Origin: a virus
Reading direction: 5' to 3' (one strand)
Virus record (IMG/VR): IMGVR_UViG_3300045988_056849
DNA length: 64,000 nucleotides
In this document: one piece after another, positions 4,430 to 61,563 of the stretch
Layout of the letters: each line of letters opens with the position of its first letter
Position numbering within the stretch: the stretch's first letter is position 1
Made by a program: the position numbers and the translations under genes
Notes under the pieces: generated by a model
The model's database searches: none
Told to the model about the DNA's origin: nothing
Seen by the model: the letters and a program-made list of their open reading frames with translations, nothing else

Positions 4430-5326
4430 ATGATGATATATTTAACAGGGGCAACAAGCTCATTAGCAAAATCTCAAGACAATCCTCAAACGGATGCTGC
4501 TTTGAGTTTGGGAGGATATATTTCTTCTACCCCAGTTCCAAATGCGGCAATAAACGCTTTGTTCGACATTATTTCTTCTTACACTTTGGACAAAAAACCG
4601 AAGGAAACTATTGCCATTGGACTCATAAATCAATTTGAAGACAAGGTAGCAACAGATGTTGAGATAAAGATAATAACCGATGAAAATCATGAAGCGTTAT
4701 TCAAATTAGCAGCAGTTGCTGTAAGTACGGATAACTATATGATGGAACAAATTGCTAATCGTTATCAAGAACCAATGCTTGCTGAATTTCATGACGCTTC
4801 TTTTTACAGAGCTGCGGTTGATTTAGAAATTAAGCAGTATGCTTCGGCAGGCGAGGAAATTGCTCTGTATCCTTTCAACGTATCTTTCGAGGTAAGAGAA
4901 ACAGGAATTGAAGCCACTTGGTTAGCATTTGAGGAAGCATTTAGCAATGATGAAACTTATACTGTGAAGAGAATATCCGAAACGATATTCAGGATTGAGA
5001 GACGTGACGAAATGGTGCTGGAAACTCCGTTAGAATGCTCTTATATTGCCACCGAAGGTTTCACGGCTAAATTTTTAGGTCAATTAAAAAATAAAGCTGA
5101 CAATTCTTTGTATGTTAAAGATGCGCTTCAACCCAAAGAAGCAGTGGGTTTTTGGATACAAAGAATAATTAAAAAAAATCGTTATCCTACAAACGAGGAG
5201 CTGATAAAAGAGTATAAAGATAAATTTGTACGTGAAAATGTAGAGGGGGTTGAGATAGTTATCAGTTATAATTTAGTTGATGTTAAGAACTATCAAGAAA
5301 CTGATTACAACGAAGATTATTCGTAA
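4430..5326 (+). CDS. Structural-module protein (298 aa), function unknown
   Basis: The ORF-track start 4382 overlaps the upstream gene. The first ATG after the upstream stop (4423-4425) is 4430 (MMIYLTGATSS...), in the same frame. Confidence 0.45.
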   Translation: MMIYLTGATSSLAKSQDNPQTDAALSLGGYISSTPVPNAAINALFDIISSYTLDKKPKETIAIGLINQFEDKVATDVEIKIITDENHEALFKLAAVAVSTDNYMMEQIANRYQEPMLAEFHDASFYRAAVDLEIKQYASAGEEIALYPFNVSFEVRETGIEATWLAFEEAFSNDETYTVKRISETIFRIERRDEMVLETPLECSYIATEGFTAKFLGQLKNKADNSLYVKDALQPKEAVGFWIQRIIKKNRYPTNEELIKEYKDKFVRENVEGVEIVISYNLVDVKNYQETDYNEDYS

Positions 5327-9475: not shown

Positions 9476-9503
9476 TGACCTGAATTCATATACGATAGAT
9501 AGG

Positions 9504-9540
9504 AGAGACGAGAGTGTATTGCTTTCGTCTCTTTTTCTTT
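9504..9540 (+). terminator. Rho-independent terminator after the tail-fibre gene, nested inside a longer 11-bp inverted repeat
   Basis: Stem agagacga (9504-9511) pairs with tcgtctct (9525-9532), followed by ttttctttt. An outer perfect inverted repeat atatacgatag (9488-9498) / ctatcgtatat (9551-9561) encloses it. Confidence 0.75.
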
Positions 9541-9707
9541 TGTATTCGTGCTATCGTATATCGGTGAAGGTAAATTATCACGGTTAATAATAGCAGTGCC
9601 GAGCAAGCATGTAAATCGTTTCGATGACTAACGAGACGCCAAAGTTATACCGAGAGTGTGAACGTATTGACCAGTAACACCAAAGAGGCAGCTCTGTCCT
9701 TGTAACT

Positions 9708-9751
9708 GAGGGGTAACTTCTGACAACTGCCGACTATCATACCCAAGTAAT
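9708..9751 (+). promoter_or_regulatory. G-box unit U1: GAGGGGTAAC-N17-TATCAT-ACCCAAGTAAT
   Basis: Direct repeat of the unit at 9781-9820 with a longer spacer. Confidence 0.4.
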
Positions 9752-9770
9752 TTGTAACAGATGTTTAACA

Positions 9771-9820
9771 AAGGGGGAGCGAGGGGGTAACATTCTCTGT
9801 ATCCTAACACCCCAAGTAAT
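9771..9820 (+). promoter_or_regulatory. G-box unit U2: AAGGGGG-AGC-GAGGGGGTAAC-N8-TATCCTAAC-ACCCCAAGTAAT, ending 10 nt before the ATG at 9830
   Basis: Shares the double G5 box with 46516-46540. Shares the GGGGGTAAC...TATCCTA...CCCA(A)GTA arrangement with 46643-46676. Confidence 0.45.
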
Positions 9821-9829
9821 ATTGAATTT

Positions 9830-12229: not shown

Positions 12230-13589
12230 TGGATTAGCAAGTAACTTCGTTGTTGAGCTTCTTGCGGCTGCGTTAGAGAAAAGAACAGTATTTGAAATTG
12301 TTAGACAATACTTGAAATTCTCTTATTTGCAAATTGAAAGTGAGAAGAAGCTGTGGCAATGGGTTACAAAAAGATACGACCGAACAGGAAAAGTTCCGAC
12401 TATTGGTCAGATTCAGCAACAATTCCAAGATGATGAAAATGTATTAGAGAAACTTGAAGAAATATCCGATGTAGAGATTGACGAGCAGGGCGGTCATGAG
12501 ATGATTGTTGATACTTTCGAGAAGTTCATCAAGAAGATGAAATTTTTGGAAGCTAACGACAAGATTGCTGATTTATACAACCAAGGAAAGAAAGAGCAAT
12601 CTTGGGATATGTTCGTCAAATACGCTGAGGACTTCTCCAAGTTCTCCATTCAGTCTGCTAAGTTTGAAACCGTATTTGGAGACTTTGCCGAACGTCAAGC
12701 AAAAAGGAGGAGCGATGATTGGCAGTTCCGTTATAAGATACCGACTGGTATTGATGAAATAGATTATCGGTTGGGCGGTGAGAACGGTGGCCCAGAGACT
12801 GGTGAGTGCGTTCTTTGGTTGGGAGACTCAGGAGCTGGTAAAAGTCAGGTGCTGGTTTCCGTAGGTATATCTGCTGCCCGACAAGGCTTCAGAGTTGCTC
12901 ACTTTCAGTTAGAAGGTACGAAGGAACAATGTTTGAACCGATACGATGCCGCTTGGACAGGTACGCTTTACCAAGATGTGAAACTTGGTAACATTACCGC
13001 CAAGAAGATGGAGGTGACCAAGCGCATTATTAAGAAGCTCCGAAAGAGTGATATCATTGTAAGCTCCGAAGAAACATTCAACGCTAAGACCTTGCCCGAT
13101 ATTCGGAGAGAGGTCAAGGAAATGGAAAAAACTTATGGTAAGATTGACGTTATCATAATAGACTATTTGGAGTTGTTAGAAGTAGGCGATGGTCATAACT
13201 ATACACCTCACGAGGAGCGTTTCAGACAAGCAAAACTTGCGAAGGGTATGAAGATGCTTGCCATGGAATTCAATGCAGTGGTTCATACAGCTACCCAGTC
13301 AAGTAGTATCGGAGAGGAGCAGAAGAACGACCCAGAGTTTGTTATCACCCGTGCTCAACTTTCGGAGGATAAAGGAAAAATCAGACCGTTTGATATTTTT
13401 ATTACAATCAATCAAACAAGGGATGAGTCCAAAGAAGAGATTATGAGACTTCATACTGATAAGCTCCGAGACTATAAGAATGGAGACCCAATACATATTT
13501 GTAATAATTTCGCATACGCAAGGTTTTATGATAGAAAGCGTACACTGAATACAGATTGGGATGAATATGATAATAACGATAAGGAGTGA
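12216..13589 (+). CDS. DnaB-family replicative DNA helicase (T4 gp41-like)
   Basis: Walker A 'GDSGAGKSQVLV' and Walker B 'VIIIDYLELL' in a C-terminal RecA-like domain after a helical N-terminal domain. Confidence 0.75.
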   Translation: MAKNDGLASNFVVELLAAALEKRTVFEIVRQYLKFSYLQIESEKKLWQWVTKRYDRTGKVPTIGQIQQQFQDDENVLEKLEEISDVEIDEQGGHEMIVDTFEKFIKKMKFLEANDKIADLYNQGKKEQSWDMFVKYAEDFSKFSIQSAKFETVFGDFAERQAKRRSDDWQFRYKIPTGIDEIDYRLGGENGGPETGECVLWLGDSGAGKSQVLVSVGISAARQGFRVAHFQLEGTKEQCLNRYDAAWTGTLYQDVKLGNITAKKMEVTKRIIKKLRKSDIIVSSEETFNAKTLPDIRREVKEMEKTYGKIDVIIIDYLELLEVGDGHNYTPHEERFRQAKLAKGMKMLAMEFNAVVHTATQSSSIGEEQKNDPEFVITRAQLSEDKGKIRPFDIFITINQTRDESKEEIMRLHTDKLRDYKNGDPIHICNNFAYARFYDRKRTLNTDWDEYDNNDKE

Positions 13590-13591
13590 GT

Positions 13592-14359
13592 ATGAAACCA
13601 TATGGATTTATATATAAATTGACTTATTTGCCTACAAAGAAAATATATGTAGGAAGACATAAGTTGAACAGCTGTAAGAATTATCTTGGTAGCGGTTCAG
13701 AAATTAAAGAAATTCAAAGCCGAGATAAAAAGAGATTACCATTACATTGGAGAAAATTATGGAAAAGACAAGTAATTGATTTAGCATATTCCTTTGAAGA
13801 ATTAAGAAAAAAGGAATATGATTGGATTCAAAAGTTAGATGCTTTGAATCCTTTAATTGGTTACAATATATTAGAAGTTGAAAGGATAGGAGGAGTTTGT
13901 TGGCCGAGTGAAGACCCAAGAGTCAGGGAGAAAATAAGAATAAGTCATCTTGGTGATAAAAATCCCATACATAAGCATATCTTTACAAAAGAAGAAAGAG
14001 AGTTAATGAGAAGAAGGAGACTTGGAACTAAATTAAGCAAAGAAGCGAGATTGAAAGTTTCAAAGGCGAGAAAGGGAATTGTTTTATCAGATGATACCAA
14101 AACTAAACTTTCATTAGCTAATTTGGGTGAAAACAATCCTAATTACGGCAAAAGAGTTGAAGAAACTTCTATGTTTGGTAAACATCATACCGACGAGACT
14201 AAAACGAAAATGTCTCAACGAATGAGCGGAAAGAATAACCCAATGTATGGCGTTACTTCTCCTAATAAGGGCAAGAAAATGTCCGAAGAACAAAAGCGTA
14301 AAATATCTGAATCAAGAAAGAGAGGTATATATGAGAAGAAAACCAAGAACAATTTCTGA
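13592..14359 (+). mobile_element. Free-standing GIY-YIG homing endonuclease gene (HEG-A) with NUMOD3-type repeats
   Basis: 'YGFIYKLTYLPTKKIYVGRH' is a GIY...YVG motif. The C-terminal half has repeated 'G(D/E/K)(K/N)NP(I/N/M)(H/Y)GK' and 'S(E/K)E..(K/L)K(I/V)S' units. It is inserted between the helicase and primase genes. A GTG at 13586 is also possible. Confidence 0.8.
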
Positions 14360-15799: not shown

Positions 15800-15871
15800 G
15801 TTAAATCTTTGGGCAAACCCAAAAATTTTTTCGATTTTATTTTGCCGTTTGAAAAATTGTCCTTACCTTCG
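15800..15871 (+). promoter_or_regulatory. Class I promoter copy 1: GTTAAAT box, -33 TTTG (15841-15844), 19-nt spacer, -7 TACCTTCG (15864-15871)
   Basis: One of five near-identical upstream regions. Fits the Bacteroidota -33 TTTG / -7 TAnnTTTG consensus with one mismatch. Followed by a tandem ATTGTAAAT pair (15879-15887, 15891-15899) and the ATG at 15904. Confidence 0.65.
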
Positions 15872-15903
15872 TATCAGAATTGTAAATTAAATTGTAAATC
15901 GCA

Positions 15904-16597: not shown

Positions 16598-17998
16598 ATG
16601 GCAACGAAAATGAATGCAGCAACAGCAAAAAGAGTGAAGGCGTTAAAGATTAACGCAAAGAACGAAGAAGAAGCACGTGAGAAACTTCTTGAAATCTTGG
16701 TAGAAAACGGAATTGAAGGAATGGAGGAAGAGGAAACTGATACCCTTCTGGACATTGCTGAATCCTTCGTGGAAGACGACAACTCAGGCGATGACGAGGA
16801 ACAGACCGAAGAGGAAGAAAACGATGAACTTGCCGAGGAAGTTGAAGAAGAGGAGGAAGAAAACGATGAACTTGCCGAGGAAGTTGAAGAAGAGGAGGAA
16901 GAAAAACCGAAGAAACCTGCCAAGAAGGCTTCTAAAAAGGTTGAAGAGCCTGAGGAAGAAGAGGAGGATGACGAAGAAGAAACCGAAGAGGAGGAAGAAG
17001 ATGAGGACGAGGGTGACGAGTTCGCAGAAATGGACAGAACAGCTCTGAAAGCCTACATCAAAGACAATGAGCTTGACATTACCGTTAAGAAGTCTATGAC
17101 TGATGACGATATTCGTGAGGCTATCCGTGCCGAAGTAGGAGAAGATGAGGACGAGGACGAGGACGAGAAACCTGCACCGAAGTCAAAGGCAAGCACGAAA
17201 ACCGCTGAAAAAGCAGCTCCGAAGAAAGAGGATAAGAAAGCTGCTGCACCTGCTAAGAAAGCGGAGAAGAAAGAAACAAAACCTGCTGCCGGCAAACGTG
17301 GAACAAAACTTGACCCGAAGAACAACGAAGATGACCGCAAAGCGTTCGCACCGTTGAAGAAGTTGTTCCCTGAAAGTGAATACGCATATGCTTGGGTAGC
17401 GAGTGCGGGCGTAACTATCAAACACAAAGGCAAAAACTCTCAGCGTTCTATGGTTCTTATCGAGAACTGCTCAAAACAGGCTGACGGCTCTATCAAGTGT
17501 AACTTGTATCTGTTGACCTTCACTAAACAGACCGAGATACTGGACAAAGCAGGTATTGACTACGAGCCTTGCTGGAGTGGAGCACCTCTTATTAAGGGTA
17601 TTACTCTTGATGAAGCTATTGAAATCATCACTGACCTTATGGAGCATATTACGGCAACCGTTCAGAAAATCGACAAGAAGCTGGGCGAAAACCGCAAGAA
17701 AATGGAAGAGAACTTGGACAAAAAGAAACCTGCCAAGAAGTCAACCAAAGTAGAGGAGCCTGAAGAGGAAGAAGATGAGGACGATGAAGAGGAGGAGGAA
17801 GCTCCAAAGAAAAAGACGTCCAAAGCTGCTCCTGCAAAGAAGGCTGCTAAAAAGGTAGTTGAGGAAGATGACGAAGAAGAAGAGGACGATGAGGAAGAAG
17901 AAGAGGACGATGAGGAAGAAGAAGATGAAGCACCAGCTCCGAAGAAGAAAGCTGCTTCAAAATCGGCTCCTGCTAAAAAGACTACCAAGAAGAAATAA
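16598..17998 (+). CDS. Poly-acidic / histone-H1-like (K/A/P-rich) protein with HeH-like module and a central globular domain
   Basis: 466 aa. It has long E/D runs, 'KPAPKSKASTKTAEKAAPKKEDKKAAAPAKKAEKK' and a C-terminal 'APAPKKKAASKSAPAKKTTKKK'. The module 'MDRTALKAYIKDNELDITVKKSMTDDDIREAIR' is shared with the 24448 ORF. Confidence 0.6.
   Translation: MATKMNAATAKRVKALKINAKNEEEAREKLLEILVENGIEGMEEEETDTLLDIAESFVEDDNSGDDEEQTEEEENDELAEEVEEEEEENDELAEEVEEEEEEKPKKPAKKASKKVEEPEEEEEDDEEETEEEEEDEDEGDEFAEMDRTALKAYIKDNELDITVKKSMTDDDIREAIRAEVGEDEDEDEDEKPAPKSKASTKTAEKAAPKKEDKKAAAPAKKAEKKETKPAAGKRGTKLDPKNNEDDRKAFAPLKKLFPESEYAYAWVASAGVTIKHKGKNSQRSMVLIENCSKQADGSIKCNLYLLTFTKQTEILDKAGIDYEPCWSGAPLIKGITLDEAIEIITDLMEHITATVQKIDKKLGENRKKMEENLDKKKPAKKSTKVEEPEEEEDEDDEEEEEAPKKKTSKAAPAKKAAKKVVEEDDEEEEDDEEEEEDDEEEEDEAPAPKKKAASKSAPAKKTTKKK
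16817..16900 (+). repeat. Perfect 42-nt tandem duplication (encodes ENDELAEEVEEEEE x2)
   Basis: gaaaacgatgaacttgccgaggaagttgaagaagaggaggaa occurs at 16817-16858 and again at 16859-16900. Confidence 0.9.
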
Positions 17999-18023
17999 AC
18001 CTGATTGGTAAGCAATAGAGAAG

Positions 18024-18058
18024 AAGGAGAGCGTGTTGAGCGTTCTCCTTTCTTTTTC
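18024..18058 (+). terminator. Rho-independent terminator
   Basis: Stem aaggagagcg (18024-18033) pairs with cgttctcctt (18041-18050, one G-U), followed by tctttttc. Confidence 0.75.
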
Positions 18059-18074
18059 TCCCATAGTTACTAAG
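18058..18074 (+). promoter_or_regulatory. Class II motif copy a: CTCCCATAGTTACTAAG
   Basis: One of four copies of (TTTTT)CTCCCA(T/A)AGTT(A/T)... Each lies immediately 3' of a hairpin and 15-32 nt 5' of a start codon. Confidence 0.45.
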
Positions 18075-24447: not shown

Positions 24448-25803
24448 ATGGCAAAGAAAAGTTCAAGTGGAGGTTTGCGTTCACAGTTGAAAGCAACTCC
24501 GATTAAAAAGCTGAAAAAGCGTGTCGATGAAGACAATGAAATGGTAGGAGTTGGTAGCAACGAGTATCTGAATTTGGAAGACGGCAAAACGTTGAAAATT
24601 CGTATATTCCCAGCTCACCCTGGTGTTGAAGACTTCTATATTCCAAAGAAGTGTTACTGGCTTACCGTTGCTGGTAGGGATGGAGACCCAAGACGTACTA
24701 CGGTGCTTGACTCTAAGGTTCACGGAGGTACGAAGTGGGATTTGGTAGAGGAGTATGTAAAATTCGCCAAGAAGAAATGGGCGAAAGATGCGGACAAATT
24801 GGACGCTCTTACAGGTACTGGTCAGAACCAAAACAGCCTCAATCCTTCTTACACTTGGTTATGCTACGCTGCACAAGTTACGGCTGACGAAGAGTTGCGT
24901 GCTAAGTTGTGGGAGTTCAAGAAAATGGTTCGGGATGCGATGAACAAGCTGGCGTTCTCCGAAGATGAGGATGAAGCAATTGAAGTTGACCCGTTCACCG
25001 ACCCAGATGAAGGTCTGCCTATCTTGGTTAAGTACATGAAAAACCCAAACAAGAAAAAGGGCGAAAACTACTATGAAGTATCATTCCCGAAGAAGGTATC
25101 AGCCAGACCGCTTACCGATGAGGAAATTGAGTATTTCATGACTCTGAAACCGCTTACCGAAGTACTGCCGAAATACGGTATGAGAGACTTTGAGAAAGCG
25201 TTGGAAGGCTTGCAGAACTTCGATGAAGAACATGAAATGGAATTGTTCGAGGACGATGCTTGGCTGGAACATGTTGAGGAAATCAAAGCCCAGTATGATG
25301 GCGAAGAGGAGGAAGAAGATGACAAACCGTCCAAAAAGAAAACTTCCAAGAAAGTTACCAAAAAGGTAGTTGAGGAAGAAGATGAGGACGAGGGTGATGA
25401 TGACTCCGATGACGAAGAAGAGGAGGAAGAAAAACCCAAGAAAAAGTCAGCGAAAGCTCCTGCTAAGAAAGCTACCAAGAAGGTAGAAGAAGAGGAGGAA
25501 GAAGAGGAGGAAGAAGATGACGAGGAGCCTGAGGAAGCAGACGATGAAGAAGAGGATGATTCAGATGAAGCTGAAGACGATGGCTTGGACGACATGGACA
25601 GAACTGAACTGAAAAAGTACATCAAGGAAAATGACTTGGAAGTATCGGTTAAGAAGTCTATGACGGATGATGACCTGCGTGAAGCTATCCGAGAAGCTAT
25701 GGGTGGCGATGACTCTGAGGAAGAGGATGACGAAGAAGAGGAGGAAGCACCAAAAAGCAAAGTTTCCCTGAAAGACATCAAGAAGAAACTTGCTGGTAAA
25801 TAA
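24448..25803 (+). CDS. Candidate gp32-like ssDNA-binding protein with a very long acidic / K-A-P tail and HeH-like module
   Basis: N-terminal 'YLNLEDGKTLKIRIFPAH' resembles T4 gp32 '[20 protein letters not shown]'. It has an acidic C-terminal tail as in SSBs and sits next to recA. No gp32 zinc ligands are seen, so the call is tentative. Confidence 0.4.
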   Translation: MAKKSSSGGLRSQLKATPIKKLKKRVDEDNEMVGVGSNEYLNLEDGKTLKIRIFPAHPGVEDFYIPKKCYWLTVAGRDGDPRRTTVLDSKVHGGTKWDLVEEYVKFAKKKWAKDADKLDALTGTGQNQNSLNPSYTWLCYAAQVTADEELRAKLWEFKKMVRDAMNKLAFSEDEDEAIEVDPFTDPDEGLPILVKYMKNPNKKKGENYYEVSFPKKVSARPLTDEEIEYFMTLKPLTEVLPKYGMRDFEKALEGLQNFDEEHEMELFEDDAWLEHVEEIKAQYDGEEEEEDDKPSKKKTSKKVTKKVVEEEDEDEGDDDSDDEEEEEEKPKKKSAKAPAKKATKKVEEEEEEEEEEDDEEPEEADDEEEDDSDEAEDDGLDDMDRTELKKYIKENDLEVSVKKSMTDDDLREAIREAMGGDDSEEEDDEEEEEAPKSKVSLKDIKKKLAGK

Positions 25804-27043: not shown

Positions 27044-27054
27044 CAGTTATAATA
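27044..27054 (+). promoter_or_regulatory. CAGTTATAATA motif (class IV) 18 nt upstream of HEG-B
   Basis: tCCAGTTATAaTAccgtaa. Compare 30698, 47699 and 50171. Confidence 0.4.
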
Positions 27055-27072: not shown

Positions 27073-27762
27073 ATGAAAGAATTGTATGGTATTATCTATT
27101 TGACGACTTGTCTTGTCAATAACAAAGTCTATGTGGGACAAACTATCAATTGGCAGGACAAGTCGTATTTAGGAAGCGGAACTGCCTTTGTAAATGCGTT
27201 GAAAAAGTACGGAAGGAAGAATTTCAAACGAGAGACTTTGAAACTTTGTTATTCTCAGGCTCAATTAGATGCTTGGGAAACGGTTATGGTTAGAAAATAT
27301 GATTCAACAAATCCAGAAAAAGGATATAACATATTGCCAGGAACTGCTAACAATTTTGGACAAATAAATCCAGCAAGACTTCCAGAAGTACAAGAAAAGA
27401 TAAGGAGAAAGAAGGTTGGTAAATATAAGGGCAAAAATTGTTATTGGTATGGTAAAACATTGTCTGAAGAAACAAAGAAGAAACTTTCAGACAAAGCGAA
27501 GAAGCGATTATTAGACCCAAGAAACAATCCGATGTACGGCAGATGTCTTTCTGAAGAAGCTAAACGGAAAATATCAAATTCAAGAAAAGGTAAACCGAGC
27601 CCAAGGGCAGGAGCCGAATTAACAGATGAAACGAAAGAAAAATTGAGAAAAGCTAATATTGGTAAACGTGTTATAAATAACGGAGTTGAAAACAAGGTTA
27701 TTAATGGAAATGATACATTACCGAAAGGATGGAATTATGGTAGATGTAAAAAAGAAAAATAA
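27073..27762 (+). mobile_element. Free-standing GIY-YIG homing endonuclease gene (HEG-B) with NUMOD3-type repeats
   Basis: 'YGIIYLTTCLVNNKVYVGQT', 'KKYGRKNFKRE'. Repeated 'G(K)(N)(N/C)(P/Y)(M/W)YG(K/R)..SEE(T/A)K(K/R)K(L/I)S' units. Inserted between recA and sbcD. Confidence 0.8.
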
Positions 27763-30725: not shown

Positions 30726-31391
30726 ATGAAACCAATAGGATTTGTTTATTTGACTACTAATATTGTAAATGGAAAGATATATGTCGGTCAATTTAAGTTT
30801 AGTAAACATAAATGGTTCAATGCTAATTATGTAGGAAGCGGAACTGTTATTGAACAAGCTATCAAGAAATACGGACGAAAGAATTTCAAACGTAGAATAT
30901 TGAAGCTGTGTTATTCGATAAATCAATTGAATGGTTATGAGACTTATTACACTTTGAAATACAATCCTAAACTTGACCCGAATATCGGATATAATCAGAT
31001 TATTGGGCCAGTTAGGAGAAGCGGAAACAAAAATCCAATGAGTTATCCGAATGTTGTTAAAAAGATAAGTGGGGAAAATCATTACTTGTTTGGTAAGCAT
31101 TGTTCCGAAGAAACTAAAAAGAAATTGTCTGAAAAGATGTCTGGCGAAAACAATCCTTTTTATGGTAAGACTCATCCAAAAGGCAAGATGTCTAAGATAT
31201 TGAAAGAGTATTATTCTACTGAAAAAGGTAAAAAAACAATTAACAAAGTTAAGAATAAATTGAAAGGACGTAAAATGTCTGAAGAACAAAAAGAGAAAAT
31301 AAGACAAGGTAATTTAGGCGTCAAGCGTTCCGAAGAAACAAGAAGAAGGATGTCAGAGTCAAGAAAAGGTATGAAATATAAAAAGAATTAA
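30726..31391 (+). mobile_element. Free-standing GIY-YIG homing endonuclease gene (HEG-C) with NUMOD3-type repeats
   Basis: 'IGFVYLTTNIVNGKIYVGQ', 'KKYGRKNFKRR'. Repeated 'GE(N)(H/N)(Y/P)(L/F)(F/Y)GK' units. Inserted between sbcC and ruvC. Confidence 0.8.
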
Positions 31392-41651: not shown

Positions 41652-41677
41652 GCAACTTTGATATTCTATATTGTAAG

Positions 41678-41707
41678 GCTCTGGGCTGCGAAGTTCGGAG
41701 CTTTTTT
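41678..41707 (+). terminator. Rho-independent terminator
   Basis: gctctgggc (41678-41686) pairs with gttcggagc (41693-41701, with G-U pairs), followed by tttttt. Confidence 0.7.
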
Positions 41708-41740
41708 ATTGGTAAATTATACACCTTTTGCTAAATAAAA

Positions 41741-41822
41741 GTTAAATATTGCCCAAAATTAAAATTTCTCCAAAAATAATTGGTAAAAAATTTTGCCGTT
41801 TCGCAAGAAGTTAGTACCTTCG
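41741..41822 (+). promoter_or_regulatory. Class I promoter copy 2: GTTAAAT box, -33 TTTG (41792-41795), 19-nt spacer, -7 TACCTTCG (41815-41822)
   Basis: The 24-nt string ataaaagttaaatattgcccaaaa is identical to copy 5. Confidence 0.65.
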
Positions 41823-41871
41823 TACTGTAATTGATAACGAAATAAGTTTAACAATCAAAAAATACAAGGTC

Positions 41872-43140
41872 ATGAAAGCAATCGAATTAACAAAGAACGA
41901 AAGAGAAATTTTGAAAGCAATCGTAGCTAACGCAAAGAAGGTAGGTGATTCAGGAGTTGAGTTCATTCTTCAGGACGTAGCGAGAGAAACTGGTAAATCT
42001 ATCCGAAGCGTATCAGCAACAACTGGAAGCCTTGCTAAGAAAGGTATGTTGCTAACCGCTAATGGAGACAGCTACTTCGATGGAGAACTCACAGAAGCTG
42101 GACTTCATGAAGTAGAAAGTAGCAAGGTTAATAACAATCAAGAAGTAAAAACTCAATCAAATAAATCAAAGAATATGGCAACAAAAGCAAACAAGACCGT
42201 AAAGGTGGAAGACAGCAAGAGTGTAACGAACGCAGTTGATAACTTCGATGCTCCTGTAATGGACGAGCGTATCTTGAAGTTGAACGAATTGAAAGCTGTG
42301 AAGATGGCTAACCTATCGAAAGGCAAAAGACCTGCTGCAAAGGAAGCAAAAGAACTTGCTACCTATATTCTCAACAACTGGGATAATCTTGCCGAGTTGA
42401 AGAATATCAAGAGCGAGGATGTAACGAATGAAGACCTTCAGAATATCTTGTCCAGTCGTTTGAAGAATTTTGAAGACGCAAGCAAAGCAGCGGAGAAAGC
42501 GGTCAAAGAAGCAGAAAAGGCTGAGAAAGCTCCGAAGGCGAAAACCGAGAAGAAGGAAACGAAGAAAGCTGCCCCTGCTAAGTCAAAGAAGGCTGATAGC
42601 AAGAAAGCAGAGCCGAAAGCGAAGGAAGAGAAGAAGGATGAACCGAAGGTGGCTAAAACTGCCCGCAAAGTGGGAGACGTTCACCCGAAGCACCCGACTT
42701 GGGTATGGACTGAGTACGCTGAAGGAAAGTTCGATTGGAGAACCAATCCAGCCGACAAGAAGCAAGGTCAGAGAACGGACAAGGCAGCGACTTCTGAAAT
42801 GAAGTCCGAGCCGAAAAAAGCAGCCGTGAGTAAGAAGGCTGTTGCTAAGGAGACAAACAAAAAGGTGGCCAAAGGTGGTAAGGTTGAAAAAGAAGCTCCG
42901 AAGGAATTGACAATTGACGAGTTCGTTGCTTTACCTTCTAAGAGTGCGAGAGGCAACAAGAAACCGAGCGAAGCCCAAAAGGAAGCATTAAAACTTGTTA
43001 TGAAAGGCTACCGAGTAACCGCTGACCATAAGTTCTTTGAGAACGCAGAAGGTGATAAGAAAGCGTGTAATTGGGATAGCGTAGTTGCTATGCTGAAGAG
43101 ATACGGAATGGAGTACATACCAGTTGGACTTGTAAAGTAA
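41872..43140 (+). CDS. Winged-helix (MarR-like) N-terminal domain fused to a long histone-H1-like K/A/E-rich region
   Basis: 'LTKNEREILKAIVANAKK...ILQDVARETGKSIRSVSATTGSLAKKGML' is wHTH-like. It is followed by 'KAPKAKTEKKETKKAAPAKSKKADSKKAEPKAKEEKK'. Behind a class I promoter. Confidence 0.5.
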   Translation: MKAIELTKNEREILKAIVANAKKVGDSGVEFILQDVARETGKSIRSVSATTGSLAKKGMLLTANGDSYFDGELTEAGLHEVESSKVNNNQEVKTQSNKSKNMATKANKTVKVEDSKSVTNAVDNFDAPVMDERILKLNELKAVKMANLSKGKRPAAKEAKELATYILNNWDNLAELKNIKSEDVTNEDLQNILSSRLKNFEDASKAAEKAVKEAEKAEKAPKAKTEKKETKKAAPAKSKKADSKKAEPKAKEEKKDEPKVAKTARKVGDVHPKHPTWVWTEYAEGKFDWRTNPADKKQGQRTDKAATSEMKSEPKKAAVSKKAVAKETNKKVAKGGKVEKEAPKELTIDEFVALPSKSARGNKKPSEAQKEALKLVMKGYRVTADHKFFENAEGDKKACNWDSVVAMLKRYGMEYIPVGLVK

Positions 43141-45059: not shown

Positions 45060-45151
45060 GTTAAATTTTGGGCATTTTTAGTTAAAAGCGAAATTTCTAC
45101 AAAGATTTTTCGCTTTTTATTTTGCCGTTTGCGAAATAGTTTCTACCTTCG
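45060..45151 (+). promoter_or_regulatory. Class I promoter copy 3: GTTAAAT box, -33 TTTG (45121-45124), 19-nt spacer, -7 TACCTTCG (45144-45151)
   Basis: tcgctttttattttgccgtttgcgaaatagtttctaccttcgtaccag is nearly identical to copy 1. Confidence 0.65.
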
Positions 45152-45179
45152 TACCAGATAACAATTAAAACATACGGTT

Positions 45180-45539
45180 ATGGCAGTTTATAGAGAAGGT
45201 TACAAAGCTATCGAAGCTATCGAAGCTATAAAAAGAGCAAGTAAGAGAATTTACAATGACGCTTGCGACTATGGTGCTCCAACCAAGAAAGGAGACGTGA
45301 TTTGGAACTATGCTAAACAACTATGCGATTGGTACGGAGTAGAGGGAACAAGGAAGGAGAGCCGATACAGCACTGGTTGTACTCTTACTCAGGACGTAAA
45401 ATTGATAGACGAATGGGCTGTAAGTGACGAACGCAAGACTTTATCTCAAGCGACCGAGATTTATACAGTTACCTTCGTGACTTGCTCAGATGGTCAATGT
45501 AAAGGCATGAACGGATATATTTACATAACAAAGAAATAA
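45180..45539 (+). CDS. Hypothetical protein (119 aa)
   Basis: First gene behind class I promoter copy 3. Confidence 0.5.
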   Translation: MAVYREGYKAIEAIEAIKRASKRIYNDACDYGAPTKKGDVIWNYAKQLCDWYGVEGTRKESRYSTGCTLTQDVKLIDEWAVSDERKTLSQATEIYTVTFVTCSDGQCKGMNGYIYITKK

Positions 45540-46364: not shown

Positions 46365-46383
46365 ATCCAAACACATAGCAAGG

Positions 46384-46450
46384 TTGCTCGTGAACTCCAA
46401 CCTTCGGGGTGATAAAAGACTTCGGAGGAGAAAGCGGAACTCACGAGCAA
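46384..46450 (+). other. 67-nt compound hairpin with two CTTCGG (UUCG-tetraloop-type) motifs; possible small structured RNA or protein-binding site
   Basis: Perfect 10-bp closing stem ttgctcgtga (46384-46393) / tcacgagcaa (46441-46450). Inner CTCC/GGAG pairing. CTTCGG at 46402-46407 and 46420-46425. No T-tract follows, so it is not a standard terminator. Confidence 0.5.
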
Positions 46451-46515
46451 TCATATTTTAATTGCCTGACGAAACGTAACAATACCAAAGATAACCGCCA
46501 AAATAATTTTGCTAT

Positions 46516-46540
46516 AAGGGGGTGTTTAGGGGGATATTCT
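46516..46540 (+). promoter_or_regulatory. Double G5 box AAGGGGG-tgttt-AGGGGG-atATTCT
   Basis: Matches AAGGGGG-agcg-AGGGGG-taacATTCT at 9771-9796. Confidence 0.4.
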
Positions 46541-46614
46541 GCGTGAGCGTACATGTACATACGTAAGCAAAAAAACTTTCTTATCAGAAATAAAGACATA
46601 ACAAATAATTGAGA

Positions 46615-46635
46615 ACTTTCTTTGCTACTTTCTTT
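46615..46635 (+). repeat. Iteron-like direct repeat ACTTTCTTT x2 (12-nt period), with a third ACTTTCTT at 46575-46582
   Basis: aACTTTCTTTgctACTTTCTTTgg is read directly from the sequence. Confidence 0.6.
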
Positions 46636-46642
46636 GGTTCAT

Positions 46643-46676
46643 AAGGGGGTAACCATCAAAGTTATCCTACCCAGTA
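46643..46676 (+). promoter_or_regulatory. G-box unit U3: AAGGGGGTAAC-N9-TATCCTAC-CCAGTA, ending about 20 nt before the ATG at 46696
   Basis: Same ordered elements as unit U2 at 9781-9820. Confidence 0.45.
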
Positions 46677-46695
46677 TGTATAAAAAATTGTAAAT

Positions 46696-48047: not shown

Positions 48048-48113
48048 GCGAATACCCGAATGACGAGAGAATGGAGATTGGCGAATAATGTTTGCTTTTC
48101 TCCGTTTCTTTTT

Positions 48114-48130
48114 CTCCCAAAGTTTATAAT
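48114..48130 (+). promoter_or_regulatory. Class II motif copy b (degenerate): CTCCCAAAGTTTATAAT
   Basis: Preceded by tctttttc and a weak hairpin. 26 nt before the ATG at 48156. Confidence 0.35.
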
Positions 48131-51043: not shown

Positions 51044-52762
51044 ATGATAGCAACAGTACCAGACATAATTGCGAAAGCTCCTGTGACCTTGTTACAGTCT
51101 CCAATGCATCAATTGGAATGTCTCAATATAGTAGATGAGATAATTGACGGCATGGACGACAAGGGAATATTGGAGCTCATGCAAGGTTCAGGAGGAGACT
51201 TGGATTGGGTATTAGATAACTTGATGAAAGATACTTATCAGGTTATGTACACGGGTGACCCAAACATTGACTTCGCTCCGAAATATACAGATAGACTTTC
51301 ACAGTCTATCGAAGAAACATTGCGGACACGCAACCTTACTTACTTTATTACTTCGGTAATGCCCGACTTTCAATTGTCTTGGCATCATTTGGAATGGGGA
51401 GACTTGGTACACCGATACAATAAATTATGTATCAACGCTGCCCGTGACCATGGTAAGTCGTATTATTTCTCAAATGCCTATTGTGCTTGGAAGCTCTATT
51501 CCTACGCAAAGCCTAAATCAAGTGTATTCTCTGCCCGACCTACGAAGAGCAATTCCAATCGTGGGTATTTGTTTAGCTTCTCACTCCAGCAGTCCGTTGA
51601 CCTTATGGAGATTTTGAAAGGAACGATTGAGAGCAACGACATTCTCAAAGACAGATTGTATCCTGATTCAAGAAATAGCGGAGCGTGGGCGAGTACGAAC
51701 ATAGTATGTAGGAACGGAGCGAGGTTGACGTGTAAGGGATTTGGGTCATCAGTACGTGGTGCTCACCCATACTGGATAGTAGTAGATGATGGACTGAAAG
51801 ATAACGTCATATACAGTGCCCTACAAAGGCAGAAAAGTATAGACTATTTCCACGCTGTTATTATGAACATGCTCGTGCCAGGAGGACAAATCATTGTCGT
51901 TGGTACTCCGTTCCACGCTTCGGATTTATACGGAGACTTGAGAAGCAAGAGCATATTTGCTACACATAATAAGAAGGGTTGGTTTGTAATTGAATATCCT
52001 GCTATCTTCCCTGACGGACGTATATTGTGGCCACAGCGTTGGAGCTTCTTCGATTTGATGGACAAGAAAGCAACGCAAGGTAACATCATCTTCAGTCGTG
52101 AGAACTTATGCCGACCTATTACCAATGAGGCTTCTATATTCCCATTGAAAGTTTTGGAACGCTCTTTGGTACGTATGGAGAACTACACGTTGGTACGCAA
52201 TCGGGATGACTTCCCAATCAAGTTTAACAAAGTTGTTACAGGCTGTGACTTCGCAATATCTGCTAACGTAGGAAGCGACTACACCGTGTTCACGACTTGG
52301 GGAGTAGATGACGAAACAGGAGAGCGTTGGTTGCTAAACTTTTACCGAGATAAGGGCAAGACCTTCCACGAACAGATGCAAATATTGAAGGGAATCAACG
52401 CAAGATTCAGACCTGATAGCATGGTGATGGAGCAAAACACATTCCAACAGATATTCGTTCAGGAAAGCGATAAACAGGGGTTGCCAGTTATAGGACATAC
52501 CACTGGAATAGATAAGTACGACTTGAAAACAGGCTGGCCAGGATTGGCTATTGATTTTGAGAGAGGTAAGATACATATACCAACTGGAGATAAGTATTCA
52601 CAAGATGTAAAAGATTTGATTTTCTCTGACCTTGGTTCGGTAGCCTTTACGGATAAAGGACTTGAGTCAGTAGGAGAACATGACGACATCTCATCCAGCT
52701 TCTGGCTTGCTAAGTTAGGTGCTAATCTTATCACGACTGGTTTCAAATATACTTTCCTTTAA
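51044..52762 (+). CDS. terL: Terminase large subunit
   Basis: 'AARDHGKSYYFS' (Walker A-like), 'YWIVVDDGL' (Walker B), 'VVGTPFH'. C-terminal RNase H-like nuclease 'VTGCDFAIS...DYTVFTTWG'. Confidence 0.75.
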   Translation: MIATVPDIIAKAPVTLLQSPMHQLECLNIVDEIIDGMDDKGILELMQGSGGDLDWVLDNLMKDTYQVMYTGDPNIDFAPKYTDRLSQSIEETLRTRNLTYFITSVMPDFQLSWHHLEWGDLVHRYNKLCINAARDHGKSYYFSNAYCAWKLYSYAKPKSSVFSARPTKSNSNRGYLFSFSLQQSVDLMEILKGTIESNDILKDRLYPDSRNSGAWASTNIVCRNGARLTCKGFGSSVRGAHPYWIVVDDGLKDNVIYSALQRQKSIDYFHAVIMNMLVPGGQIIVVGTPFHASDLYGDLRSKSIFATHNKKGWFVIEYPAIFPDGRILWPQRWSFFDLMDKKATQGNIIFSRENLCRPITNEASIFPLKVLERSLVRMENYTLVRNRDDFPIKFNKVVTGCDFAISANVGSDYTVFTTWGVDDETGERWLLNFYRDKGKTFHEQMQILKGINARFRPDSMVMEQNTFQQIFVQESDKQGLPVIGHTTGIDKYDLKTGWPGLAIDFERGKIHIPTGDKYSQDVKDLIFSDLGSVAFTDKGLESVGEHDDISSSFWLAKLGANLITTGFKYTFL

Positions 52763-56245: not shown

Positions 56246-56275
56246 TTTAATTGTCTCATTTAAGTATGATTTGAG

Positions 56276-56309
56276 AGGAGCTACTTGTGAAAGTCGCTCC
56301 TTTCTTTTT
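56276..56309 (+). terminator. Rho-independent terminator
   Basis: aggagc (56276-56281) pairs with gctcct (56296-56301), followed by ttcttttt. Confidence 0.65.
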
Positions 56310-56316
56310 AACAAAA

Positions 56317-56370
56317 GTTAAATTTAGCAAAGTTTCTTATAAAAAGTTTTGCGGTTATAAAATAACTTCG
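56317..56370 (+). promoter_or_regulatory. Class I promoter copy 4 (variant with 8-bp deletion): GTTAAAT box, TTTG (56348-56351), -7 TAACTTCG (56363-56370)
   Basis: Shares aaaagttaaat, gttttgcgg and cttcgtaccagata with the other copies. The -33/-7 spacing is 11 nt rather than 19. Confidence 0.45.
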
Positions 56371-56396
56371 TACCAGATAATCAATATAACAAAGTC

Positions 56397-57878
56397 ATGG
56401 GAGCATTTATACCAAGTAAATATCAAAGAGCCGTTTACATCTATATTGAGAAGGGTAAAGGCAATGCGGTTATAGACGCAGTAGCAGGTTCAGGAAAATC
56501 TACAACGATTGTGAATGCGTTGAAACTTATTCCGAAGAACAAGCGAGTATTGTTTTTGGCGTTCAACAAGGCAATCGTAGAGGAACTGAAAATCAAAGTA
56601 GGTAATCTCAACAATGTAGATATTAAAACGCTACATAGTTTGGGAGCTTCGGCAACTATGCGAGCTTTGAACTCTCAGCTTCAGGTTGATAAATATACGG
56701 CTTGGGTTAATAATGGTATCAAATACTCTTCCCTTTCTCCGAAGTCAGACTTGTTACCTGAACAGATGTCAACTTGGAAAGGCAATATCTTGAAGCTCAT
56801 TGACCTTGGTAGAGTAAACTTGGTTAAGTCCGAGAAGGAATTGGAAGAGCTTGCTTGGAAACATAATATTGATTTGGAAGATAACGAGGTTGATATTGCT
56901 ATTAAGGGTATCAATTGGGGCGAAAGGGAAACGCAAGTCATAGACTTCACAGACATGATATACTTCCCGAACGTCAAACAGATAAAGATGTTCCAATACG
57001 ATTGGGTATTCATAGACGAGTGTCAGGACTTGAACGCTGCCCAAAGAAACTTGTTCTTGAAATGCTTGAAACCTAATGGTAGATTTGTAGCTGTTGGAGA
57101 CCCACGTCAGGCAATCTATGGTTTTGCTGGAGCGGACGTTGAAAGTTTCAACCTTTTGAAGAGACTTCCGCACACCGTGAAACTTCCTTTATCCGTATGT
57201 TACCGTTGCGATGGAGATATAATCGGAATGGCCAAAGAGATAGTGCCTCAGATAGAAGCAAGAGCAGGTGCGCCAGCAGGTGTAGTTAGTCGGGAGAGCG
57301 TTATGGCGGATGTTAAGGATGGTGATATGATACTTTGTAGGGTTTCAGCTCCGTTGGTTAAATTGTGTATGCAATATATCGGGAGAGGGGTGAAAGCGTA
57401 TGTGAAAGGAAGGGATATTGGAACCAATCTTATTAACATGATAAAGAAAACCAATCGCAAGCAGATTAAGGACGTAATGGAGAGACTTGAAAGGGAATTA
57501 TCACGGATAATCGGAAAGGTGGTAGCAAAGCAGGGATGCACCGAAGCTGAAGCGAAGGAACATGAAATGTATAAGAACTACGAGGACAAGTTGAGAGCAA
57601 TCGAAGTTCTTTCAGAAGGGTTGGCAACTTCCCAAGAAGTGATTGACCGCATAGACATGATTTTCTCCGATGATAACAAGAACGGTATTTGTTTGAGTAC
57701 GATACACAAGTCAAAAGGTTTAGAGAGCGACCGAGTATTCATCATATGTGAAGATAAGCTCTATTTGAAATATTGTATGACCGTTCCGTGGATGGCGGAA
57801 CAAGAACGCAACCTTGTCTATGTTGCGATAACAAGAGCCAAGCACTTTTTAGGATATATTCAAGACTTTGTAGCATAA
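56397..57878 (+). CDS. UvrD/PcrA-like SF1 DNA helicase, paralogue 2
   Basis: 'AVAGSGKSTTIV', 'VFIDECQDL', 'VAVGDPRQAIYGFAGA', 'LSTIHKSKGLE', 'YVAITRAKHFL'. Block-for-block collinear with 33204-34691. Confidence 0.75.
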   Translation: MGAFIPSKYQRAVYIYIEKGKGNAVIDAVAGSGKSTTIVNALKLIPKNKRVLFLAFNKAIVEELKIKVGNLNNVDIKTLHSLGASATMRALNSQLQVDKYTAWVNNGIKYSSLSPKSDLLPEQMSTWKGNILKLIDLGRVNLVKSEKELEELAWKHNIDLEDNEVDIAIKGINWGERETQVIDFTDMIYFPNVKQIKMFQYDWVFIDECQDLNAAQRNLFLKCLKPNGRFVAVGDPRQAIYGFAGADVESFNLLKRLPHTVKLPLSVCYRCDGDIIGMAKEIVPQIEARAGAPAGVVSRESVMADVKDGDMILCRVSAPLVKLCMQYIGRGVKAYVKGRDIGTNLINMIKKTNRKQIKDVMERLERELSRIIGKVVAKQGCTEAEAKEHEMYKNYEDKLRAIEVLSEGLATSQEVIDRIDMIFSDDNKNGICLSTIHKSKGLESDRVFIICEDKLYLKYCMTVPWMAEQERNLVYVAITRAKHFLGYIQDFVA

Positions 57879-57880
57879 AA

Positions 57881-57953
57881 GTTAAATATTGCCCAAAAAT
57901 AGAAAAAAGTTTGGAAATTATTTTTGCCGTTTGAAAAATACTCCGTACCTTCG
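57881..57953 (+). promoter_or_regulatory. Class I promoter copy 5: GTTAAAT box, -33 TTTG (57923-57926), 19-nt spacer, -7 TACCTTCG (57946-57953)
   Basis: Followed by a tandem ATTGTAAAT pair (57961-57969, 57974-57982), as in copy 1. Confidence 0.65.
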
Positions 57954-58004
57954 TAGTGTAATTGTAAATAAAGATTGTAAATCAAACAGTAAATTTCAAA
58001 GAAT

Positions 58005-58786
58005 ATGGAAGCAACAAATCAGAATTTAGACAGCGTATTAAAGAAGCTGAGAAAGTTACAAAACCTTTACGAAGGTGCAAAGAAAATCAACTCTGAAGGA
58101 GAAGCGAACGCAGCTGCTGCGGCTATACAAAGACTTCTTACCCAGTACAACTTGTCTATGGATGAGATTGGAACGGACGAGGAGAAAGCAAAAGATACTG
58201 TGTTTGAAGAGAAAGTGGACGGATTCACCTACAAGAGAGTATCGGAGGAGAATGGGAGTTCCGTTTGTTATACGTTCTTTGTAAATGGAATTTCTGCAAA
58301 TGTTTTCAAGTAGGAAGCACTTACAGAAGATTGATGATTTTCGGTAAGAAAGAAAACATTGAGACCGTTAAGTGGTTGCGTGGAATGCTTGCTGAACGTT
58401 TCGTAGCGTTCTCCAAAAATCGTTTCAAGGAGTACAAGAAAACCATGGAGTATGCTATGAAGCCTATCAGTATGGATAAGTATCAGAGAAGTTACTTGAT
58501 GGGCTGTGCAGCTGGGCTGGATGCTAAGCTGAAAGAGGAGAGTGACCGAGAAAAAGCAAAGAATGCCGAATATGGAGCAAAAGTTACAGCTTTGGTAGTT
58601 CGCAATGATACAGCCGTTACCGAGTATATTGAAAACAAGTACAAGGTTGGTAGAGGAAGAGCGAGAAAAGAGAATTTTGATTCAGCCAGAGCCTACGGAT
58701 ATAAGGATGGCAAGAACACGGAGCTTCACAAGCAAGTAAGTGCGGGAGCGAAGAGTCAAGCCGATGGAGTGAAATTGCTTAAATAA
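58005..58786 (+). pseudogene. DUF2786-like gene split into two overlapping frames (58005-58313 and 58208/58265-58786): frameshifted gene or sequencing error
   Basis: The N-terminal ORF has the DUF2786-like helix pair 'VLKKLRKLQNLYEGAKKINSEGEANAAAAAIQRLLTQYNL'. The -1 frame is open from 58208 and continues as 'GGEWEFRLLYVLCKWNFCKCFQ...LMIFGKKENIETVKWLRGML', the usual continuation of such proteins. No slippery heptamer is seen. Confidence 0.45.
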
Positions 58787-58809
58787 ACCATATGACTTTG
58801 ATTGTGATT

Positions 58810-58839
58810 ATGGGGGTTGTCCTTCGGGATGGCTCCCAT
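58810..58839 (+). other. Hairpin with apical C-UUCG-G tetraloop preceding class II motif copy c
   Basis: atggggg (58810-58816) pairs with ctcccat (58833-58839, one G-U). The inner stem tcc-ttcg-gga lies at 58820-58829. Confidence 0.55.
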
Positions 58840-58849
58840 AGTTATTTTA
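58833..58849 (+). promoter_or_regulatory. Class II motif copy c: CTCCCATAGTTATTTTA
   Basis: Overlaps the 3' arm of the hairpin. Upstream of HEG-D (ATG 58886). Confidence 0.4.
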
Positions 58850-61504: not shown

Positions 61505-61547
61505 GAGAGGGAATTGAGTTGTGAAACTTGGTTCCCTTTCATTTTTC
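61505..61547 (+). terminator. Rho-independent terminator with apical GNRA-type loop
   Basis: gagagggaa (61505-61513) pairs with ttccctttc (61532-61540, one G-U). Inner stem agtt-gtga-aact. Followed by atttttc. Confidence 0.7.
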
Positions 61548-61563
61548 TCCCATAGTTATTAAG
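61547..61563 (+). promoter_or_regulatory. Class II motif copy d: CTCCCATAGTTATTAAG
   Basis: Identical to copy a over tttttctcccatagtta. 15 nt before the ATG at 61578. Confidence 0.45.

Follow-up and report, generated by a model that had tools for sequence, protein, structure and literature searches.

Five intergenic repeats of a metagenome phage as probable host-type promoter cassettes with a helically phased upstream box

What are the five similar regions that recur between the genes of an uncultivated phage, and which polymerase would read them? The phage DNA in question is the virus record IMGVR_UViG_3300045988_056849, a stretch of 64,000 nucleotides hereafter called the window, and the first of the regions lies at positions 15800-15903, directly upstream of a gene for a sigma-like protein. 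The answer that we consider probable is that the five repeats are promoter cassettes for the host RNA polymerase carrying its primary sigma factor, of the sigma-A(Bfr) type, with an upstream region that resembles an upstream promoter (UP) element. As such they are of an ordinary kind: phage promoters that are strong and host-dependent and carry an enhancer region upstream, in a host phylum that has received little study. What may be new, and for this the evidence is suggestive, is a defined and phased upstream word common to Bacteroidota genomes and their phages.

All five cassettes lie on the + strand and follow the plan TTTTGCCGTTTG-N12-TACCTTCGTA, that is TTTG-N19-TAnnTTnG, from which copies 2 and 4 depart in detail. 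The string TTTG-N19-TACCTTCG occurs exactly at 15841, 41792, 45121 and 57923, four times against 0.35 expected, and none of 100 shuffled sequences reached four; the gap of 19 nt that the initial annotation had given for four copies was thus recovered. For the promoter type proposed, a -33 TTTG is looked for some 19-21 nt upstream of the -7 element, and the gap is 19 nt in copies 1, 2, 3 and 5, but 11 nt in copy 4. The -7 element itself, TACCTTCG or TAACTTCG, matches five of the six fixed positions of TAnnTTTG, with C at the seventh base and no G at the two free positions. Each cassette occupies an intergenic gap that ranks among the larger ones; it is on the coding strand, faces a gene and has a predicted leader (from the predicted start site to the ATG) of 22-47 nt.

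Upstream of every core stands the word GTTAAAT, which starts at 15800, 41741, 45060, 56317 and 57881 in copies 1 to 5, the first TTTG starting at 15841, 41792, 45121, 56348 and 57923. The distances between the two, 41, 51, 61, 31 and 42 nt, came out on recount as they had been counted by hand before. Five of the ten GTTAAAT words on the + strand of the 64 kb fall no more than 61 nt upstream of the five cores (binomial estimate ~1e-9), and the word by itself is not enriched in the window. The claim that the copies differ by whole helical turns holds when the distance is taken to the -33 TTTG; taken to the -7 element (64, 74, 84, 46 and 65 nt), copy 4 falls out of register. The copies had also been called near-identical, which is overstated, as their gapless identity over 70 nt is 63-77% and only blocks are identical. 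Nor is the 12-mer at -33 uniform, since it ends in C in copy 2 (TTTTGCCGTTTC), and while GTTAAAT is present in all five copies, the box of copy 4 (GTTAAATTTAGCAAAG) has no TTGSSCA half.

In copy 1 the box GTTAAATCTTTGGGCAA (15800..15816, +) begins 41 nt before the -33 TTTG and is conserved in orthologues. It is followed by a UP-like spacer of A/T tracts (15817..15839), with AAAAA 20-16 and TTTTTT 15-10 nt before TTTG, in agreement with the A/T phase of host promoters described below. The extended -33 element TTTTGCCGTTTG (15840..15851) and the -7 element TACCTTCG plus TA (15864..15873) come next, and transcription is predicted to start at 15876-15877, 4-5 nt past the element, by the spacing rule of PMC6847099. 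The leader holds two ATTGTAAAT repeats (15879 and 15891, within 15879..15899) just before the ATG of the sigma-like gene at 15904, and it is conserved in diverged relatives. In copy 2 a terminator-like hairpin with a T-run (41675..41710, -17.9 kcal/mol) precedes the box GTTAAATATTGCCCAAAA (41741..41758, 51 nt before TTTG) and the core TTTTGCCGTTTC, N12, TACCTTCGTA (41791..41824), all on the + strand and upstream of the gene for a 422-aa protein at 41872-43140. Copy 3 has tandem boxes 21 bp apart (45060..45087, +), GTTAAATTTTGGGCA at 61 nt and GTTAAAA at 40 nt, then a terminator-like stem-loop AAAAGCGAAA/TTTCGCTTTT (45084..45117, +, -13.9 kcal/mol) whose T-run abuts the -33 element, and a core TTTTGCCGTTTG, N12, TACCTTCGTA (45120..45153, +) in front of an open reading frame (ORF) of 119 aa at 45180-45539.

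The hairpin of copy 4, followed by TTTCTTTTT (56273..56304, +, -20.1 kcal/mol), is again terminator-like; the box GTTAAATTTAGCAAA (56317..56331, +) lies 31 nt before TTTG, and the core, TTTTGCGGTT, an 11-nt spacer and TAACTTCGTA (56347..56372, +), precedes the UvrD-like helicase gene at 56397-57878. Copy 5 begins 3 nt past the stop codon of that gene, with the box GTTAAATATTGCCCAAAA (57881..57898, +) 42 nt before TTTG, the core TTTTGCCGTTTG, N12, TACCTTCGTA (57922..57955, +) and a leader (57961..57996, +) with repeats 13-14 nt apart, ATTGTAAAT at 57961 and 57974 and ACAGTAAAT at 57988, ahead of the DUF2786 gene at 58005-58313. The names given before to the downstream genes stand unevenly: UvrD-like and DUF2786 are solid, the sigma-like label has three weak matches (Sigma70_r2, PHROG 1740 and TIGR02937) and nothing significant among solved structures, and the protein of 41872-43140, which had been called winged helix-turn-helix or H1-like, is without any family match.

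The short spacer of copy 4 is the result of an 8-bp deletion. In the window this copy reads TTTGCGGTTATAAAATAACTTCGTA, where five relatives have TTTGCGGTTAYAAAATAAGTTCGTAACTTCGTA, that is TTTG-N19-TAACTTCG, and the deletion takes out one unit of the direct repeat TAAGTTCG and TAACTTCG. Since the five relatives retain the 8 nt and the 19-nt gap, the deletion noticed before is real and specific to the window genome, and it is what sets the box out of register relative to the -7 element (46 nt). Lacking the 8 nt that the relatives keep, this promoter is probably crippled in the window genome, and judging by its sequence it would be inactive or weak. The deletion represents a knock-down of the promoter that arose naturally, or else a mistake of the assembly.

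The cassettes were also followed into relatives. A scan of viral contigs for the exact pattern gave 48 loci, about 42 of them true relatives on contigs of 50-120 kb and 6 of them chance matches in coding sequence. Because such a scan is biased towards the motif, a second set of loci was fetched through the downstream sigma-like protein (64-99% protein identity) and their upstream DNA was aligned. Across these promoters the columns with no or hardly any variation are, in the -7 element, T, A, T, T and (G), in the -33 element TTT and in GTTAAAT its AAA. Either C or T stands at the seventh base of the -7 element (TACCTTTG, TAATTTCG, TACTTTCG), and the gap of 19 nt is kept.

Promoters of sigma-A(Bfr) type were reportedly treated by Bayley in 2000 and Vingadassalom in 2005. 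The primary-sigma consensus of Bacteroidota is TTTG at -33 and TAnnTTTG at -7 (PMC6847099; PMC7366714), and in Flavobacterium johnsoniae transcription starts 4-5 nt past the -7 element, with no G at -10/-9 (PMC6847099). The invariant columns of the orthologues are the positions of this consensus, and therefore a core of host type is supported. The likeness extends to the 19-nt gap, the lack of G at -10/-9 and the intergenic, gene-facing position. The differences are the C for T at -6 in all window copies and the far longer conserved blocks (TTTTGCCGTTTG and CTTCGTA); recognition of the window copies by the host holoenzyme is putative. No further TTTG-N18-20-TAHHTTYG site was found in the window save for one chance coding match, and matches to Escherichia coli-type promoters were not enriched there (76 versus 59±8, 39 versus 30±5 and 26 versus 30±7).

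The nature of the host agrees with this. The window is phage DNA of 39% G+C with all genes on the + strand, tail and baseplate genes up to 9475 and beyond them genes for helicases, DnaB, primase, DnaE, SSB, UvsX, SbcCD, ribonucleotide reductase, dUTPase and TerL, together with many small ORFs. DnaE has its best matches, with identities of 31-35%, in phages of Chryseobacterium, Cellulophaga, Tenacibaculum and Bacteroides. Over all start codons of the window, A stands at -13 in 72% and at -12 in 67%, and a purine at -3 in 85%, and Shine-Dalgarno-like 4-mers are rarer upstream of them (15%) than at random positions (23%); A at -13/-12 without a Shine-Dalgarno sequence is the initiation context of Bacteroidetes (Baez 2019, PMC6847099). 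Thus, three independent kinds of evidence, promoter consensus, DnaE similarity and start-codon context, support a member of the Bacteroidota as host, and the earlier proposal of host-sigma promoters in a phage of this phylum is indirectly supported by them and by the absence of competing promoters.

It has to be asked whether the cassettes might instead be read by the phage's own sigma-like factor, as autoregulated or middle promoters. The conserved blocks exceed the host consensus, the gene behind copy 1 encodes a protein with weak matches to sigma-70 and extracytoplasmic function (ECF) factors, and the C at -6 creates a CGTA that resembles the -10 'CGT' of ECF-type promoters. However, CGT is not conserved in diverged orthologues, which have TTTGTA, TTCGCC or TTTTAC at this place, while TA..TT.G is invariant, and the ECF-type reading of CGTA was dropped on this ground. 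A -35 element of 'AAC' type is missing as well, a sigma gene transcribed from its own promoter would need some other means of getting started, and three other conserved motif classes of the phage are better candidates for such a factor. We regard this possibility as very improbable and the host holoenzyme as the probable reader of the core.

The second question is what the upstream box does. In the phage family, GTTAA(A/T) starts 31, 40-43, 51 or 60-62 nt before TTTG in 26 distinct upstream architectures, with none between these values, and in most of them a proximal box lies near 41 nt. The 61-nt class arises from the distal one of two boxes that stand in tandem, 20-21 bp apart, an arrangement that copy 3 shares with the sigma promoters of L065 and L070. 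Between orthologues the spacings wobble by 1-3 nt. Taken alone, the phasing in the family is suggestive, with an estimated p of ~0.01-0.09.

Further evidence comes from host genomes, in which the same word has the same phase. One genome per species was scanned for AAGTTAAAT, 14-44 nt and then TTTG-N19-TAnnTTTGCA; almost all matches were in Bacteroidota, and all figures that follow from host genomes are to be read as those among the matches listed. Over 104 de-duplicated sites the distance from AAGTTAAAT to TTTG peaks at 21-23, 29-33 and 40-41 nt, with troughs at 24-28 and 34-39 nt (Rayleigh R = 0.36 at a period of 10, p <= 0.0002). Of 102 sites, 54 fit the phase that the phage had led us to predict beforehand (residues 0-2 modulo 10), where 32% would be expected (p = 1.3e-5). 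For a control word, made by reversing the letters, 19 of 93 sites were at the phage phase, with one proximal peak and a flatter tail, so that the box-selected sites are phased more sharply than the control. Weak bumps follow at 51-52, 60-62 and 70-72 nt in the 45-75 nt range (p = 0.018). De-duplication at 50% identity left about 20 sites per set and was uninformative. Together with the family distances, these data bear out the initial annotation in that the box is phased and not noise of the spacer.

Host promoters that had not been selected for the word point in part to a more general feature. In a strict set (n=101), GTTAA is enriched 2.4-fold near the promoter and periodic, at a phase about 2 nt earlier. 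In a looser set (n=272) the most periodic 5-mers are AAAAA and TTTTT, with a period of 10.5 nt. The A-minus-T profile of the host loci (L072-L455) alternates with ~10.5 nt over at least 35 nt upstream of TTTG, being A-rich at 4-10, 16-19 and 24-31 and T-rich at 1-3, 11-13 and 33-34 nt before it. The profile of the phage family correlates with that of the host at r = 0.54 over 35 nt, the best of all 35 circular shifts, and looks like an exaggerated version of it. Phage A-tracts lie 16-20 and 36-38 nt and T-tracts 10-15 and 31-33 nt before TTTG, which places A/T tracts in helical register as in a UP element, and the AAA of each box coincides with the host A-phase.

A link of box-bearing host promoters to tRNA genes was considered and dropped, as it is not specific to the box (26 of 120 versus 37 of 120 for the control word). 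Bacteroidota promoters of perfect consensus were often tRNA promoters in any case (22-31% of those sampled). Literature searches with the strings TTTGCCGTTTG, TACCTTCGTA and GTTAAAT returned nothing relevant, and the motif search in the published start-site map of Bacteroides thetaiotaomicron covered -50 to +1 only (PMC7366714).

The word is also found in a phage that is not related. In Bacteroides fragilis phage B124-14, one gene-strand promoter region reads AAAAGTTAAATtcgtGTTAAAT...TTTG, with GTTAAAT at 31 and 20 nt, and another has GTTAAAAcaGTTAATgcacGTTAAAgtaTTTG, with GTTAA(A/T) at 28, 19 and 9 nt. As in the window, a terminator-like stem, boxes and TTTG-N18-19-TAACTTTG are present on the gene strand, and the 11-mer AAAAGTTAAAT is identical. 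Unlike the window phage, B124-14 is a siphovirus with no DNA or protein relationship to it, its -7 element has the canonical TTTG and the TTGSSCA half-box is missing. The promoter P_BfP1E6 was reportedly engineered, by Whitaker in 2017, from strong promoters of this phage. This engineered derivative is described as having UP elements (bioRxiv 10.1101/2025.03.18.644028).

The box could also be the site of a specific regulator, either a phage protein or a dedicated host factor, acting as a class I-type activator or at an operator, with the phasing due to a face-specific contact with polymerase. In line with this, the phage family conserves the TTGSSCAAAA half, which host genomes do not conserve behind AAGTTAAAT; TTGGGCAA is the reverse complement of TTGCCCAA, as for a site usable in both orientations, boxes occur in tandem 21 bp apart, the G of GTTAAAT is conserved in AT-rich DNA, and the boxes are centred at about -63, -73, -83 and -93, in the manner of CRP at its class I positions. 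Yet word and phase recur in bacterial genomes throughout the phylum and in a phage of other descent, no protein emerged as a candidate to bind the box, the box is missing from two of the orthologous promoters, and promoters used first after infection, if these are such, cannot need a phage protein. We therefore think a specific regulator unlikely. The presence of box and phase across Bacteroidota genomes and in B124-14 favours a UP-type or otherwise host-read element over a phage-specific activator, and of the two options that had been named before, activator or UP-type site, it is the latter that the evidence prefers.

UP elements of E. coli were reportedly defined by Ross in 1993 and Estrem in 1998. 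There, the C-terminal domains of the polymerase alpha subunit contact DNA faces at UP subsites and beside class I activators (PMC4132738), and periodic A/T tracts have been described upstream of bacterial promoters (PMC12641261). Since both the A-rich positions (about -42 and -53) and the centres of the boxes (about -63 to -93) match the faces used by the alpha C-terminal domains in E. coli, a UP-like function is the one best supported; the A/T alternation of ~10.5 nt upstream of -33, the A-rich stretches at the place of UP subsites and the class I register of the boxes are the likenesses. The phylum, the sigma factor and the core promoter are different, a G is conserved in the box, which stands at a greater distance upstream than classical UP elements do, and binding of alpha C-terminal domains here is putative. 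A more specific proposal, which we put forward tentatively, is that GTTAAAT is a sequence-specific promoter element of Bacteroidota, its own kind of UP subsite or the site of a conserved factor, that acts only at whole turns (about -56, -66, -76, -86 and -96), and that unrelated phages stack it, here with the phage-specific TTGSSCA partner, in their strongest host-dependent promoters.

Several points weigh against the answer given here or against parts of it. The C at position -6 stands where F. johnsoniae promoters nearly always have T, and for this C, the TA after it and the long -33 block conservation goes further than the host consensus calls for, which could reflect recent duplication or an additional reader. 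The orthologous promoters L063 and L068 keep the core and lack the box, and the independent spacing classes in the family are few, with 31 and 51 nt found in one lineage each and 61 nt being the distal member of a tandem. In the host genomes, orthologues were imperfectly de-duplicated, the control word too has some positional structure, GTTAA ranks 183rd of 428 5-mers for periodicity in the looser set of 272 promoters, and in unselected promoters it is no commoner than its reverse complement. As the unbiased 5-mer test does not single out GTTAA and the control has structure, the host phasing may belong to A/T tracts in general. Moreover, the identity of polymerase and sigma factor, the start sites, the timing and the reader of the box are what we infer from these patterns.

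If the cassettes are host-type promoters with a UP-like region, they would work as follows. The usual order is a terminator-like hairpin that would insulate the unit, the box GTTAAAT(N1-2)TTGSSCAAAA, the spacer of A/T tracts, TTTTGCCGTTTG, 19 nt from its first TTTG to the -7 element TACCTTCG(TA), and a leader of 22-47 nt. The holoenzyme would read the -33 and -7 elements and start 4-5 nt past the latter, 35-36 nt downstream of the first T of TTTG. The A-tracts, among them the AAA of GTTAAAT, would share one face of the helix, at about -42, -53, -63, -73, -83 and -93, where alpha C-terminal domains, another phylum-wide host factor, intrinsic curvature or a combination of these would raise the strength of the promoter. 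The phage sigma-like factor would then probably read the other motif classes. Early use is the most likely timing of such host-dependent promoters, because they are the only promoters of host consensus in the 64-kb window, their units are short and hold small ORFs and the sigma-like gene, a terminator-like hairpin follows the sigma unit, and other motif classes stand before the replication and later genes.

The hairpins and the genes around the cassettes give them a modular character. Terminator-like hairpins with T-runs lie upstream of copies 2 and 4 and, in copy 3, between the boxes and the -33 element, and such hairpins close at least the sigma unit. The stem of copy 3 changes its sequence among relatives (GCGAAA/TTTCGC, GGAGGAAG/CTTCCTT and GGAGAAA/TTTCTCC) with five compensated pairs. 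One relative, L012, is 99.8% identical to the window until 8 nt short of the first ATG that follows copy 3; there the 119-aa gene (window 45172-45531) is replaced by an unrelated one (4622-5002), and homology returns at 45531. The DUF2786 gene has two different upstream halves among relatives. Thus, the cassettes also mark boundaries of exchange. The promoter early stem-loop cassettes of T4-type phages were reportedly described by Arbiol in 2010, and the window shares with them repeated units of an early-type promoter and a stem-loop that bound variable, exchanged gene modules, a gene replacement with its boundary exactly at the cassette and alternative upstream halves. The promoter type and the host are different, and recombination is deduced here from two comparisons only.

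These same facts might be taken to mean that the similarity of the copies and the steps of 10 bp are history, with mobile regulatory modules spread and homogenised by recombination, chance insertions and deletions and a 21-bp duplication. The two alternative architectures upstream of the DUF2786 gene, the replacement in L012 at the boundary of copy 3, the scarcity of independent spacing classes and the wobble within them (40-43 and 60-62 nt) are what such a history would leave. It would leave unexplained the same phase in host genomes and the host-like A/T profile, and no intermediate spacing occurs in the 26 family architectures. We consider it quite unlikely as the whole explanation, and it is compatible with promoter function and not exclusive of it.

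The hairpins bear on yet another possibility, that the box forms an upstream promoter in its own right, read by a factor specific to the phage, the cassettes being tandem promoters. Its sequence AAAGTTAAAT has AGTTA in common with two other motif classes, CAGTTATAGTA and CCCATAGTTA. In the architecture with a hairpin, however, such a promoter would fire straight into the terminator-like stem-loop, and the quantised spacing to the core and the presence of the word upstream of host promoters would have no place in it. We hold it to be extremely improbable and keep to a UP-like role of the box. The box was likewise rejected as a -33/-7 promoter of its own, as inspection found no properly spaced partner element.

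If this answer is right, the cassettes map the host-dependent transcription units of an abundant group of uncultivated metagenome phages of ~50-120 kb, for which a Bacteroidota host is proposed, and point to a temporal cascade driven by sigma factors with three further motif classes. They would also be compact and naturally tuned promoter parts for the engineering of Bacteroides, each composed of core, phased upstream region and insulating terminator, including a natural variant with an 8-bp deletion in the spacer. The phased word suggests looking further upstream than -50 in the existing start-site data of B. thetaiotaomicron, which would make the nature of the Bacteroidota UP element directly testable.

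The leaders hold an element of their own. AT(T/C)GTAAAT occurs six times in the window, five of them in leaders 9-44 nt before start codons (15879-15899, 57961-57996 and 46687-46695). In the leaders of copies 1 and 5 there are two or three repeats 12-14 nt apart, and in the sigma-gene leaders of relatives it is kept down to 64% protein identity. These repeats may serve as an operator or in the control of translation.

Before the replication and later genes stand three further motif classes, likewise conserved in relatives. One is a T-run hairpin followed by (TTTTT)CTCCCATAGTTA, at 18023-18070, 48080-48126, 58808-58845 and 61505-61558, 30-50 nt before start codons, and may represent promoters for the phage sigma-like factor placed directly after the terminators of early units. 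Another is CAGTTATA(G/A)TA, at 27044, 30698, 47699 and 50171, 25-45 nt before starts in very short gaps; two of these four sites precede homing-endonuclease genes. In addition, the long non-coding gaps 9476-9829 and 46365-46695 end in GGGGGTAAC-N9-11-TATCCTA-N2-4-CCCA just before the genes at 9830 and 46696, and hold runs of GGGGG with possible structure. These gaps could be another promoter class or encode non-coding RNAs.

As to the phage itself, a search of GenBank phage DNA returned no relative with a 7.3-kb piece of the window and none with a cassette. Membership in the 'Flandersviridae' was dropped, as this group is partly defined by polA and the window phage has DnaE. Coding runs of low complexity rich in Glu, Asp and Lys, at 16598-17998 (a 466-aa protein after the sigma-like gene) and 25290-25760 (the C-terminal half of the SSB-like protein), gave spurious DNA matches to jumbo phages. 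Three homing-endonuclease paralogues (PHROG 314; 13586-14359, 27073-27762 and 30726-31391) lie among the replication and recombination genes, one of them between DnaB and primase. The gene for the large terminase (51044-52762) stands amid those for a DNA-polymerase exonuclease, dUTPase and ribonucleotide reductase, a long way from the tail genes, which lie where the window begins.

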